The notes below the pieces were generated by a model. It did not search any database. It saw only the letters and a program-made list of their open reading frames with translations, and was not told where the DNA came from. A DNA stretch of 64,000 nucleotides, taken from assembly GCA_963693055.1 (NCBI GenBank), contig OY843751.1, positions 2,176,001 to 2,240,000 of the forward strand, read 5' to 3'. Below are positions 36,238 through 42,104 of this stretch, piece by piece. The stretch's first letter is position 1; each line of letters begins with the position of its first letter. The stretch comes from a bacterium. Lineage in GTDB: Bacteria > Zhuqueibacterota > Zhuqueibacteria > Residuimicrobiales > Krinioviventaceae. Made by a program: the position numbers and the translations under genes.

Positions 36238-37716
36238 TTATTTAGAGTTGATGATTGTTCTTAATTCTTGATTTTCGTTTTTCAGTTCAGATATTTCTTT
36301 TTTCATATCTATCATATACAAGGTCATTTCTTCAATTTTCTGCAAGAGTTTAGTTTGCATTTCACTCACCTGCACGCCGTTTTCTTGCATTTCCTGAGCG
36401 GAGGGGATTTCCGGCAGGTGTTTGTTTTCTTTAACGAACTGTTCTACGTGGTCAAGAGAGGGGAGGGCATAATCCTTTTCGAAAACAAAATCCGCTCCGG
36501 CGTCCGCTTTGATAGTAATGTCCTGTGCGGTGATCTTACCGGCGACAGTGAGTTTGGAATCATTTTCTGGTGAACTTGGACCGATACAGACTTTTCCGTC
36601 AAAGTTGATTGAAAGACATTTATGTTCTCTTGTAAAAAAAGACATTTCATCAATTTGATGATCATAGTAAATTCTACCTCTTGTAACACTTGTATTACTA
36701 CCAAATAAAATACAGCCTTTACCAGTATTGGGACATAATAAGCTGATTCCTGTATTATTATTTGTTTCTAAAACCAGGTCATCGCTTGCACTGTTTGCTG
36801 GCATAGCCCCGGAACTCCCCATTCGTGAATGGATAGGATATAACGGAGAGGTGTTAATTCCCAGTTTATCGCTTACCATTACGTCCCCATCATTTTCAAC
36901 CTGTACGCCTTCATTACTACCATCGTTTGATATAAAGTTAGAATTTAACTTTATATTTCCATTAAATTGTATATTTCCGGTACCTGCTGGAGTAAGTTGA
37001 ATACTGTTATTGTTATATAGTGCTTTAATATCCATGTAACCTTCTGCGTTCCATCCATAGCGTGCTACATCAGTATTATTTGATTTTATTGTAATCTCTG
37101 AAGTTTGTGGTCCTGTACCGCTTTTATTAAGAGTTAACAGGCTGGTAGGAAAAATTCCTATACCTATTTTATGAGTTATTTTTACATCGCCATCATCTTC
37201 AACAATAATACCTTCATCGTCACCATCATTAGAAATGTAATTACTGTTTAAATTAATATTCGAATTATATAGTATTACTTTATTATCAACAATTTGCAAT
37301 CTTCTTTCTTGATAGTTAGTATTACCAGACCAAACATTAAATCCCTGATATGTACCTGTTCCGCCACTACAGATGAATTGTAATCCTCCTGCTGCAGCAT
37401 CACTAAACTGATACCCAAGCCATACATTATCATCATAATTTTGACCTGCAAAAGTACCCCCTATACCTGTAAATAGAGCTCTGCTGTTTGGTTGAGAAAT
37501 TTTACTTATTATTCCACTATTATCACCCGGGCTTTTTACTTCAAAGAAATAAGTGGGGGAAACCCCTATACCCACTTTGTCGTTTGTAGTAATTTTATCT
37601 GTACTATCATTCACCCAGTCATCGGCAGATGTATCTTGGGCCAAAATAAAATTGAAACAACATAATACCAGAATTATCGAGAACGACAAGTTTTTCCATA
37701 TGGAATTGTTTCTCAT
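36238..37716 (-). CDS. Secreted fibre-like array protein 11
   Basis: Start set at MRNNSIW behind GGAGG. Signal peptide and conserved C-terminal domain. Confidence 0.87.
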   Translation of the reverse strand: MRNNSIWKNLSFSIILVLCCFNFILAQDTSADDWVNDSTDKITTNDKVGIGVSPTYFFEVKSPGDNSGIISKISQPNSRALFTGIGGTFAGQNYDDNVWLGYQFSDAAAGGLQFICSGGTGTYQGFNVWSGNTNYQERRLQIVDNKVILYNSNINLNSNYISNDGDDEGIIVEDDGDVKITHKIGIGIFPTSLLTLNKSGTGPQTSEITIKSNNTDVARYGWNAEGYMDIKALYNNNSIQLTPAGTGNIQFNGNIKLNSNFISNDGSNEGVQVENDGDVMVSDKLGINTSPLYPIHSRMGSSGAMPANSASDDLVLETNNNTGISLLCPNTGKGCILFGSNTSVTRGRIYYDHQIDEMSFFTREHKCLSINFDGKVCIGPSSPENDSKLTVAGKITAQDITIKADAGADFVFEKDYALPSLDHVEQFVKENKHLPEIPSAQEMQENGVQVSEMQTKLLQKIEEMTLYMIDMKKEISELKNENQELRTIINSK

Positions 37717-37763
37717 CAAAGCCTCCCTTGAGAAAATAAAATTGAATGAATAAAACAGAAAAT

Positions 37764-37830
37764 GTTTATTTGATAGACAGCCCCAAATAAACCCACGATG
37801 AAAAGTACAGAATTTGGACATGGAAATCAA
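37764..37830 (-). promoter_or_regulatory. Array promoter + leader hairpin (copy 5)
   Basis: TTGATT-17(TG)-TACTTT, then GTGG GTTTATTTG-gggctgtctat-CAAATAAAC. Confidence 0.72.
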
Positions 37831-37889
37831 TGTGTAAATTGGAAAAGATAAAAAAATGACAACAGATTTCTGTTGTCATTTAATGTATT

Positions 37890-40410: not shown

Positions 40411-41925
40411 TTAATGACGTTCCAATTTCGAGAGTCTTGATTCAAGTGCTTTAATTTTTTTATTTTGTTCAATAATGTACAATGTCAATTCTTCAATTTT
40501 TTGTAAATGAAGAATTTGCATTTCACTGACCTGTATGCCGTTTTCCTGCATTTCTTTTACAGAGGGGATTTCCGGCAGGTGCTTGTTTGCTTTAACAAAT
40601 TTTTCAACATGATCAAGAGAGGGGAGGTTATAATCTTTTTCGAAAACAAAATCAGCGCCACCGGCATCGGCCTTGATGGTAATGTCCTGTGCGCTGATCT
40701 TACCGGCGACAGTGAGTTTGGAATCATTTTCTGGTGAACTTGGACCGATACAGACTTTTCCGTCAAAGTTGATTGAAAGACATTTATGTTCTCTTGTAAA
40801 AAAAGACATTTCATCAATTTGATGATCATAGTAAATTCTACCTCTTGTAACACTTGTATTACTACCAAATAAAATACAGCCTTTACCAGTATTGGGACAT
40901 AATAAGCTGATTCCTGTATTATTATTTGTTTCTAAGACCAGGTCATCGCTTGCACTGTTTGCTGGCATAGCCCCGGAACTCCCCATTCGTGAATGGATAG
41001 GATATAACGGAGAGGTGTTAATTCCCAGTTTATCGCTTACCATTACATTTCCATCATAATCAATTTGAATACCTTCATTGCCACCATCACCAGATATAAA
41101 ATTTGAATTCGTTCTGATGTTACCATTACATTGAATATATCCCGTACCGGATGGGGTGAGAAGAATATTGTTATTACTATAAAGAGCTCTTATATCCAGA
41201 TAACCACTAGCATTCCATCCATAGCGTGCCACATCTGTATTGTTTGATTTAATAGTAATCTCTGAAGTTTGTGCTCCTGTACCGCTTTTGTTAAGGGTTA
41301 ACAGGCTGGTAGGAAAAATTCCTATACCAATTTTATTTGTTATTTTAACATCACCATCATCTTCGATTTGAATTCCTTCATTATCACCGTCATTGGAAAT
41401 ATATTTGCTATTTAATTGAATGTTACCCAGGTTTAAACCAAGGTTACCTGTTTCATCAATTTCAATTGTTTTTCTCCATACACCATTTATTCTTTGGAAA
41501 ATTCCAAATTTAGTATCTTCAGAACCTGCAGTCAGGTCAATATATTGCATACCAATACCACCCATATGCGCAGTACTGCCGGATAAATTTCTTGCCCCAA
41601 ATAAATAACCCGCATACGTATTATTTAGTTGACTGTCATTAAATGTCTCGAATCCCCATGAACTCCCATTAGCACCAAAATTTGTATCAGAATATGTAAA
41701 TACTGCTCGTATTTCAGCCTCACCACTTGCACCTGTCCAGGTTCCGTTGTTCATTTCCAAGCCTCCATTAGAAATTTCAACATTCCCCGTTGTTGTTGTA
41801 TTGCCACTTCCATCAGTTGTCCAGCTGTCGTCGGTAGTATCATCAGCCGCCGAAAGTTTTATCGGATTCATTGCGAAAACAATTATTACAATAACTAACA
41901 GAATGAAACAGGATTGCCTTTTCAT
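40411..41925 (-). CDS. Secreted fibre-like array protein 14 (chimeric)
   Basis: Signal peptide. Blocks shared with genes 3, 11 and 13. Confidence 0.88.
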   Translation of the reverse strand: MKRQSCFILLVIVIIVFAMNPIKLSAADDTTDDSWTTDGSGNTTTTGNVEISNGGLEMNNGTWTGASGEAEIRAVFTYSDTNFGANGSSWGFETFNDSQLNNTYAGYLFGARNLSGSTAHMGGIGMQYIDLTAGSEDTKFGIFQRINGVWRKTIEIDETGNLGLNLGNIQLNSKYISNDGDNEGIQIEDDGDVKITNKIGIGIFPTSLLTLNKSGTGAQTSEITIKSNNTDVARYGWNASGYLDIRALYSNNNILLTPSGTGYIQCNGNIRTNSNFISGDGGNEGIQIDYDGNVMVSDKLGINTSPLYPIHSRMGSSGAMPANSASDDLVLETNNNTGISLLCPNTGKGCILFGSNTSVTRGRIYYDHQIDEMSFFTREHKCLSINFDGKVCIGPSSPENDSKLTVAGKISAQDITIKADAGGADFVFEKDYNLPSLDHVEKFVKANKHLPEIPSVKEMQENGIQVSEMQILHLQKIEELTLYIIEQNKKIKALESRLSKLERH

Positions 41926-41971
41926 GGAAAATCTCCCTCAAATTTATGAATGTTTAAATGATTGAAAAGGT

Positions 41972-42037
41972 ATTATTTGATAACTTCCCCAAATAATCCC
42001 ACATATAAAACGTACGAAAAAAAGGTTTTTTAATCAA
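41972..42037 (-). promoter_or_regulatory. Array promoter + leader hairpin (copy 6)
   Basis: TTGATT-17-TACGTT, then GTGGG ATTATTTG..CAAATAAT. Nearly identical to copy 4. Confidence 0.72.
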
Positions 42038-42104
42038 GAAATGATAATAGGAATTATAAGAAGAAAGGGGTAAATCATTATTTACCCCTTTTACAGGAAG
42101 AAAA

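Follow-up and report, generated by a model that had tools for sequence, protein, structure and literature searches.

The tandem array of 19 fiber genes in the analyzed 64,000-nucleotide stretch of contig OY843751.1 (hereafter the window; positions 2176001–2240000 of a genome that is a single contig of 6.54 Mb rated 100% complete) contains tracts of near-identity that were probably left by recent exchange between neighboring paralogs. The genes are numbered g1–g19 along rising window coordinate. Each closes with a conserved C-terminal domain of ∼95 amino acids, and a genome search found 19 copies of this domain, every one inside the array. Gene 14 (g14), whose signal peptide was assessed by eye, carries one tract that is nearly identical to gene 11 (g11) and a second that is identical to gene 13 (g13) (table 1). 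Both fit a history of RecA-type segmental gene conversion between tandem paralogs.

The longer tract extends over 352 bp and differs between g14 and g11 at one synonymous position (40936). It corresponds to amino acids 294–410 of g14, reaching from a hinge motif to where the C-terminal domain begins, and covers approximately one fiber repeat, the last. Within it, only one of 76 silent sites (proportion of silent differences, pS, of 0.013) and none of 275 replacement sites differ. In the adjoining 378 bp on its 5′ side, which are collinear, 48 of 80 silent sites differ (Fisher P = 2e-17) and overall identity is 78.8%. The border at position 41047 is sharp, with identity falling from 99.7% to 78.8%, and the 3′ flank is 82% identical. 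When 87 mismatches were redistributed 20,000 times over the 765-bp g14/g11 diagonal, the longest segment with one mismatch or none reached a maximum of 142 bp (mean of 56 bp) versus the 352 bp observed. The shorter tract, an exact match of 187 bp, overlaps the first by 7 bp (40695–40701). It forms the core of the C-terminal domain (amino acids 409–470 of g14) and has no differences at 37 silent sites, whereas pS in this domain has a median of 0.60 when all gene pairs are compared. Trees conflict across the border between tracts, as g14 groups with g11 in the last repeat (support of 97) and with g13 in the C-terminal domain (support of 100).

An earlier note on this DNA, made from the sequence alone, had claimed that gene 14 is almost identical to gene 11 from ∼40705 to 41047 and matches gene 13 from ∼40516 to 40700. 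Both claims hold, and the extents are refined to 352 bp with one silent mismatch and 187 exact bp. The silent-site contrast, bounded tracts, and tree conflict likewise uphold its view that recent recombination or gene conversion was involved. Its description of near-identical blocks with sharp borders inside otherwise divergent genes needs qualification. Borders are sharp, but the genes around the blocks are not otherwise divergent: g14 and g11 are collinear homologs over amino acids 168–495 with 86% amino acid identity, and the 187-bp block falls in a domain common to all 19 genes.

Selection on proteins cannot explain the tracts because silent sites are identical as well. Strong purifying selection that kept modules identical after an old duplication is in keeping with the flank of the longer tract, where the proportion of replacement differences (pN) is well under pS (0.11 vs. 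0.60), and with the conservation of the C-terminal domain in 19 of 19 genes. But with one difference in 76 silent sites and none in 37, we give this explanation almost no credence, barring some constraint on the same bases from an overlapping DNA or RNA element. Homologous, nonreciprocal exchange fits best because the tracts are short and bounded on both sides on an older diagonal; genes 12 and 13, which lie between the 352-bp copies, are single copy. Alternatively, unequal crossovers, in which a duplication was followed by a deletion, could have produced the mosaic. The array clearly grew by duplication, the 352-bp direct repeats, with a spacing of 4164 bp, provide a substrate for unequal crossover, and there are older duplicated units that cross gene borders, such as the g6 tail with g5 versus the g16 tail with g15. 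However, one crossover would carry identity to one end of a unit, whereas each recent tract is short and flanked on both sides by ∼80% identity on the same diagonal, such that two nested events per tract would be needed for each of 17 tracts. Unequal crossover is thus an unlikely source of the recent tracts.

We suggest that gene conversion starts in the conserved hinge motifs between fiber repeats and in the shared C-terminal domain, and that successive tracts overwrite one another, which would be the reason that the gene-11 and gene-13 blocks abut. Over the long term, the variable middles may be duplicated, lost, and brought into new pairings by crossovers in the same conserved DNA, and the outcome would be a repertoire of binding specificities. 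Dependence of the exchange on RecA is presumed; the genome has one copy of recA. The lack of close relatives weighs against the proposed conversion. A search for sister strains among 167 genomes of the phylum, JGI metagenomes, and the run index yielded none, a genome of the same genus has no match, and the best relative outside of the genome is 63% identical in amino acids over part of its length.

The earlier note had named assembly chimeras as the finding that would overturn recombination, and the check, run on contigs rebuilt from three public runs (X1–X3) of one sample, did not refute it. In these runs, the 352-bp block was resolved as a separate unitig, with depths of 10.5, 8.3, and 5.9 (X1, X2, and X3, respectively) versus 5.0, 4.9, and 3.9 in the unique flank. 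Depths are 9.0, 9.8, and 7.2 for the portion of the 187-bp block that is present in two copies. Both flanks of both 352-bp copies are present at single depth, and unitig borders coincide with changes in the copy number of 31-mers in the genome. At the polymorphic position 40936, the gene-11 allele is present in X1 and the gene-14 allele in X2 and X3. A junction unitig of 44 bp (40681–40724), formed by 14 junction 31-mers that are single copy in the genome, is perfect and at single depth in all three runs. The approximately doubled depth, presence of both alleles, and recovery of junction words in three runs therefore argue that the block is not an assembly chimera.

A chimera, or a consensus polishing error that wrote the reads of one paralog into another, would nevertheless be consistent with a single-contig genome having come out of a metagenome-sized sample, with frameshifts in two array genes (g1 and g15) that are possibly sequencing errors, and with no listed contig spanning the region. 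Because the 352-bp unitig is at 1.5–2.1 times the depth of its flank, has single-depth flanks and both alleles, and is joined by a perfect junction unitig, we consider such an artifact very unlikely. Several limits apply to the contig evidence. Runs X1–X3 represent one sample that is possibly the source of the assembly and were available as contigs alone, they include no record with 31 bases on each side of the 40695–40701 junction, and positions 40673–40710 are also identical to gene 5. Phasing across the 352-bp repeat rests on the original assembly; under an alternative phasing, gene 11 instead of gene 14 would carry the gene-13-like domain, and nothing else would change. The contigs, at depths of 3–6, revealed no informative joint or variant arrangement, and nothing of the stretch was found in a fourth run (X4). 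A joint from 38223 to 35800 in one X1 contig was considered as a rearrangement and rejected; it arises from a gene-10 contig whose portion past the start of the stretch aligned to the paralogous gene 12.

Other resemblances of gene 14 predate the two tracts. Its start is 68% identical in DNA to that of gene 3 (105 of 154 positions; 55% for the next best array gene), its amino acids 52–167 match no other array member, and its upstream region is 85% identical to that of gene 10 over 41970–42090 and 79% over 165 bp. We interpret the gene-3-like start and gene-10-like upstream region as old homology because identities are only 68% and 79–85%. The earlier note had reported both, and the resemblance to gene 3 and homology of the promoter and terminator region to that of gene 10 stand, but neither is near-identical. 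Its summary of gene 14 as evidence of module shuffling is appropriate to the older mosaicism (a gene-10-like upstream region, gene-3-like start, and gene-11-like body) and too strong for the recent events, which created no new domain order. Since g11 and g14 were already homologous on the same diagonal, the 352-bp event homogenized them, and recent tracts homogenize more than they shuffle.

Gene 14 is not special. Across the array there are 22 near-identical tracts of at least 60 bp, 17 of which are between genes and five within genes. No other between-gene tract is as long as those of g11/g14 and g13/g14. Most fall in the C-terminal domain, including those of g15/g16 (148 bp), g10/g13 (128 bp), and g11/g12 (110 bp). 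Repeats are duplicated within g1, g2, g5, g12, and g15. To judge from the sequences, the new combinations and within-gene repeat duplications are older than the recent tracts. Arrays in other genomes have similar features. A GTDB comparison covered 77 loci from the best 80 of 652 matches, which is not a random sample, and 22 of the 77 loci have at least three fiber genes. Exact tracts of 45–152 bp between paralogs are present in 12 of these 22, in arrays of Bacteroidota.

Variation in the array could instead be programmed, either by a site-specific recombinase as in integrons and shufflons or by a diversity-generating retroelement (DGR). The head of the array has a fragment of a tyrosine recombinase, several genes are preceded by a palindrome whose five exact genome copies are all in the array, and an integrase-like neighbor family occurs in four of 77 related loci. 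But the recombinase is missing its 5′ half, with a 113-codon 3′ fragment alone beside the array, and the tracts end within coding DNA, away from palindromes, with no common motif visible in eight tracts. An exact-match scan of the window uncovered no inverted repeats of at least 25 bp. The sole reverse transcriptase lies at a distance of 2.2 Mb, and the 80 differences in the flank lack the adenine specificity of a DGR (A in 21 for g14 and in 31 for g11). Programmed variation therefore has a very slim chance of being the source of the tracts, and gene conversion is preferred. The IS3-type element abutting the recombinase fragment has a second copy at contig positions 2151750–2153071 and also truncates a gene at 52354–53211. 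The truncated recombinase and this element, at window positions 50743–52400, suggest the border of an island. Over the first 20 kb of the window, GC content is 26–37% versus 39.4% in the genome.

Table 1. Locations of the fiber array, the gene 14 tracts and their partners, and neighboring genes (window coordinates; aa, amino acids)
Feature	Position	Strand	Details
352-bp tract common to genes 14 and 11, gene 14 copy	40695..41046	-	exact-match and diagonal scans
352-bp tract, partner copy in gene 11	36531..36882	-	exact-match and diagonal scans
187-bp exact tract common to genes 14 and 13, gene 14 copy	40515..40701	-	exact-match and diagonal scans
187-bp tract, partner copy in gene 13	39483..39669	-	exact-match and diagonal scans
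Older gene 14/gene 11 homology	41047..41424	-	partner 36883-37260; 78.8% identity, pS 0.60, pN 0.11
5′ third of gene 14	41425..41925	-	first 153 nt gene-3-like, remainder without array match
Upstream region of gene 14	41926..42104	-	terminator hairpin 42064-42091, promoter-like hexamers, palindrome 41973-41996
g11/g12 tract, 110 bp	36386-36495 = 38065-38174	-	
g13/g10 exact tract, 128 bp	39437-39564 = 34878-35005	-	
Tandem array of 19 fiber genes (g1-g19)	19605..49691	-	products 321-617 aa
Gene 14	40411..41925	-	504 aa; signal-peptide-like start, fiber repeats, conserved C-terminal domain
Gene 10	34805..36055	-	416 aa
Gene 11	36238..37716	-	492 aa; C-terminal domain gene-12-like
Gene 12	37890..39362	-	490 aa; carries internal repeat
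Gene 13	39397..40362	-	321 aa
Type II secretion system/type IV filament-like operon	1812..12176	+	ATPase, secretin, PilN-like, GspF, pilin, prepilin peptidase; Pfam
Split Rhs	12410..19419	+	1704-aa body (RHS repeat), 169-aa piece, 335-aa core and C-terminal toxin region
Membrane open reading frame closing the split Rhs unit	within 12410..19419	+	89 aa; likely immunity, from position
Pair of orphan Rhs core/C-terminal cassettes, with a candidate immunity gene after each	53870..57728	+	roles inferred
Tyrosine recombinase, C-terminal fragment	50743..51084	-	5′ part missing; abuts IS3-type element (∼51047-52368)

The organization of the array is predicted to allow most of its genes to be expressed. 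Seventeen of the 19 have intact reading frames with signal-peptide-like starts. No RNA data set containing the stretch was listed, which is neutral as to expression. Terminator hairpins are located upstream of g10, g11, and g14. Promoter-like hexamers, with a palindrome after them, are found 107–119 bp ahead of the start in nine of 10 long intergenic regions. The hexamers were found with a looser custom pattern and were not picked up by a standard promoter scan, so promoters are assigned from position. All intact copies appear to be expressible from several small transcription units, and the array would therefore be a parallel repertoire rather than a system of silent-cassette switching, because 17 of 19 reading frames are whole with leader-like starts and several units have upstream elements of their own. 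The arrangement of vls, pilS, and msp2, with silent promoterless cassettes around one expression site, was not found in the array. In the accessible text of a review (PMC4534519), vlsE conversion tracts are up to 423 bp, and Borrelia vlsE/vls, Neisseria pilE/pilS, and Anaplasma msp2 are like the array in having mosaics and short, bounded tracts between paralogs of surface proteins. Unlike these systems, as covered there, the array has neither a single expression site nor silent cassettes, its host is a free-living uncultured bacterium, and its recent tracts homogenize.

Additional features were observed in and near the array. The palindrome has 7-bp arms and a 10–11-bp spacer, sits just downstream of the promoter-like hexamers, and is located at 25555, 30295, 37766, 41973, and 46986, with variants at 36104, 48567, and 50185. 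These five exact copies are all of those in the genome; with one mismatch allowed, there are 29 sites genome-wide. The palindrome is likely a repressor operator. Gene g1 has a near-perfect internal tandem duplication of ∼567 bp (19955–21123) and a 22-bp direct duplication near 20880–20900 that causes its frameshift; these duplications are either very recent or an assembly error. In g15, the region encoding the signal peptide is out of frame at a short T run (∼43420) relative to its paralog g5, which could reflect sequencing error, decay, or phase variation. A decayed 5′ remnant of a twentieth fiber gene, similar to g17 and with its own promoter-like region, is present at 49880–50245. Between g1 and g2 is an insertion sequence with an integrase core (21278–22251), which we take to be of the IS481 family; a copy that is 100% identical is at contig position 1328628.

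We infer that the array proteins are secreted, trimeric, tail-fiber-like adhesins predicted to bind surfaces. Searches of Pfam and NCBIfam assigned no family to gene 14, and NCBIfam yielded two stray single-member matches among 115 proteins. For the conserved C-terminal domain, NCBIfam has no model, Pfam gave no match within the window, and no structure has been solved. Relatives number at least 1850, many of them named "tail fiber protein" in Bacteroidota, with 15–30 copies in each of five Bacteroidota genomes, and the nearest Atlas clusters are of Bacteroidota hypothetical or "cell wall anchor" proteins. PHROG tail families were matched by six of 19 array proteins. A profile of 115 relatives matched five Bdellovibrio fiber sequences in the PDB (8ond, 8oml, 8ol4, 8ojn, and 8on4; E-values of 1.9e-22 to 8e-5). 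These include structures of Bd2133, which is the best match (E = 1.9e-22), Bd1334, Bd2439, and Bd3182. The same profile matches MyRF weakly. The model of the C-terminal domain is confident (pLDDT of 90) and comprises a long terminal helix preceded by three short ones. Less favorable to a fiber are the poor monomer model of full-length gene 14 (pLDDT of 61 and pTM of 0.33) and its weak fold matches (E = 0.06 or worse). Foldseek found no match in the PDB at E-values up to 0.001 for either the full-length or C-terminal domain model.

The array proteins resemble, and differ from, two groups of fibers. Bdellovibrio MAT fibers are described in the accessible text of PMC10769870 as trimers with a conserved N-terminal domain and variable tips, and 13 of 21 have an S74 domain with an SDxxxK motif. 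Like the MAT fibers of that text, those of the array have ∼20 paralogs per genome, signal peptides, and fiber repeats with a VGIGTxxP-type capping motif. Unlike MAT fibers, which are ∼1000 amino acids, conserve an N-terminal domain of ∼130 amino acids, and vary at the C-terminal tip, array proteins are 320–620 amino acids, conserve the C-terminal domain of ∼95 amino acids, and vary in the middle. They are also encoded in one tandem array and have no S74 catalytic motif. The N-terminal halves differ among the 19 proteins, and no conserved N-terminal domain of the MAT type is present. The text supplements of PMC10769870, as far as accessible, have no mention of Flavobacter, Bacteroid, Pedobacter, Cytophag, KSB1, or Rhs. 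Similar to phage tail fibers with an S74 intramolecular chaperone (PF13884), array proteins have a fiber of beta repeats followed by a C-terminal helical domain with a long last helix, but they are encoded in the chromosome, have signal peptides, and are not near phage genes. The C-terminal domain model has only weak fold matches to S74-annotated viral proteins (E = 0.2 or worse). PF13884 has no match in array proteins and is absent from the genome. The position of a conserved Asp presumably corresponds to that in the S74 motif, but Ser precedes this Asp in none of the 19 array genes, and in related loci the preceding residue is P in 90, A in 58, and S in 38 of 188. Self-cleavage of array proteins is unlikely because there is no PF13884 match and no SDxxxK in the 19 genes. 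Array proteins thus probably work like MAT or tail fibers and belong to neither family as defined. Silent-cassette, DGR, integron, shufflon, and S74 systems were each considered for the array and judged not to fit.

The array neighbors an operon similar to those of type II secretion systems (T2SS) and a split Rhs, which is encoded by three genes with leader-like starts (table 1). Related loci have similar neighborhoods. The fiber domain is present in 17 of 167 genomes of the phylum, with at most three copies outside of the host genome and none in the genome of the same genus. In one of these genomes, a fiber gene is inside a gspD...gspF operon and directly before a split Rhs, and in two others a fiber gene is directly before Rhs. 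Among the 77 GTDB loci, 22 have an Rhs family (f0) and 27 have f0 or a second family (f2). Two members of f0 were confirmed by Pfam and its core motif is present in 11 of 27; f2 has no Pfam match and was taken from its position as the N-terminal half of a split Rhs. As a rough control, the rate was 3.8% in random 21-kb windows of the host genome, which is a single genome and from a different phylum. T2SS-like genes are present in six of 22 multifiber loci versus none of the 55 others, and Flavobacterium and Pedobacter have arrays of 10–13 fiber genes inside T2SS-like operons. Six loci, in Flavobacterium, Pedobacter, Sphingobacterium, and a genome of the same class, have fiber arrays (up to at least 13 genes) inside T2SS-like operons and beside a one- or two-part Rhs. 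Cultured environmental strains that have the operon include Pedobacter vanadiisoli and Flavobacterium seoulense. Elsewhere in the host genome, at contig positions 5148000–5160000, at least five orphan Rhs core/C-terminal cassettes are located beside tRNA-Val and tRNA-Asp genes. An OmpA-family protein encoded at window positions 62160–63770 has bacterial TSP3 repeats, which are the source of a weak match to a binary-toxin calcium-binding domain.

In gene content, the operon is like the so-called T2SS of Bacteroidetes, being T2SS- or type IVa pilus (T4aP)-like and in a genome of FCB type (PMC6668835, PMC5553014). As given in the accessible text of these sources, Denise et al. (PMC6668835) suggested an origin from T4aP for the T2SS of Bacteroidetes and regarded it as a possibly novel secretion system, and Wang et al. 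(PMC5553014) linked the T2SS-like system of Cytophaga hutchinsonii to cellulose adhesion. The main text of neither paper, as accessible, mentions Rhs. A literature search recovered no paper on the combination of a T2SS-like operon, fiber array, and Rhs, with some queries dominated by unrelated uses of the terms and subscription literature mostly outside its reach. In Bdellovibrio, the protein Bd0109 is reportedly a pilus-linked Rhs protein and is a loose parallel.

We tentatively suggest that surface-binding fibers may be exported with the neighboring T2SS-like/Rhs system. Several observations argue against a link to Rhs. Another T2SS-like operon of the genome, identical in gene order (contig positions 1519588–1539973), has a split Rhs and candidate immunity gene but no fiber gene, and the array is transcribed opposite to the T2SS-like operon. 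Just three of 18 fiber loci, in 14 genomes of the phylum, adjoin Rhs, 50 of the 77 GTDB loci lack an Rhs-family gene within the sequence covered at the locus, many of these sequences being short, and some fiber genes instead adjoin secreted peptidases. A broader proposal, which we regard as rather doubtful, is that the array could be the targeting arm of an undescribed toxin-delivery system that is widespread in the FCB group. A machine derived from T4aP would export split Rhs toxins that have signal peptides along with a library of trimeric fibers. The fibers would dock by their conserved, noncleaving C-terminal domain and choose target cells by their variable repeats, and conversion and unequal crossover would remix the library.

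As a process, exchange between paralogs is already known, and the tracts are a clean but ordinary case. The variant in this genome is an array of apparently expressed fibers, MAT-like but of reversed polarity, with genomic ties to Rhs toxins and to a secretion system that is poorly understood. Conversion tracts mark the fiber array as actively remodeled, and the fiber family is very common and found repeatedly inside T2SS-like operons beside Rhs toxins. The loci provide candidate cargo for the T2SS-like system of Bacteroidetes that PMC6668835 describes. The layout of array, operon, and Rhs, which recurs in other bacteria, would suit a role in the targeting of toxins.

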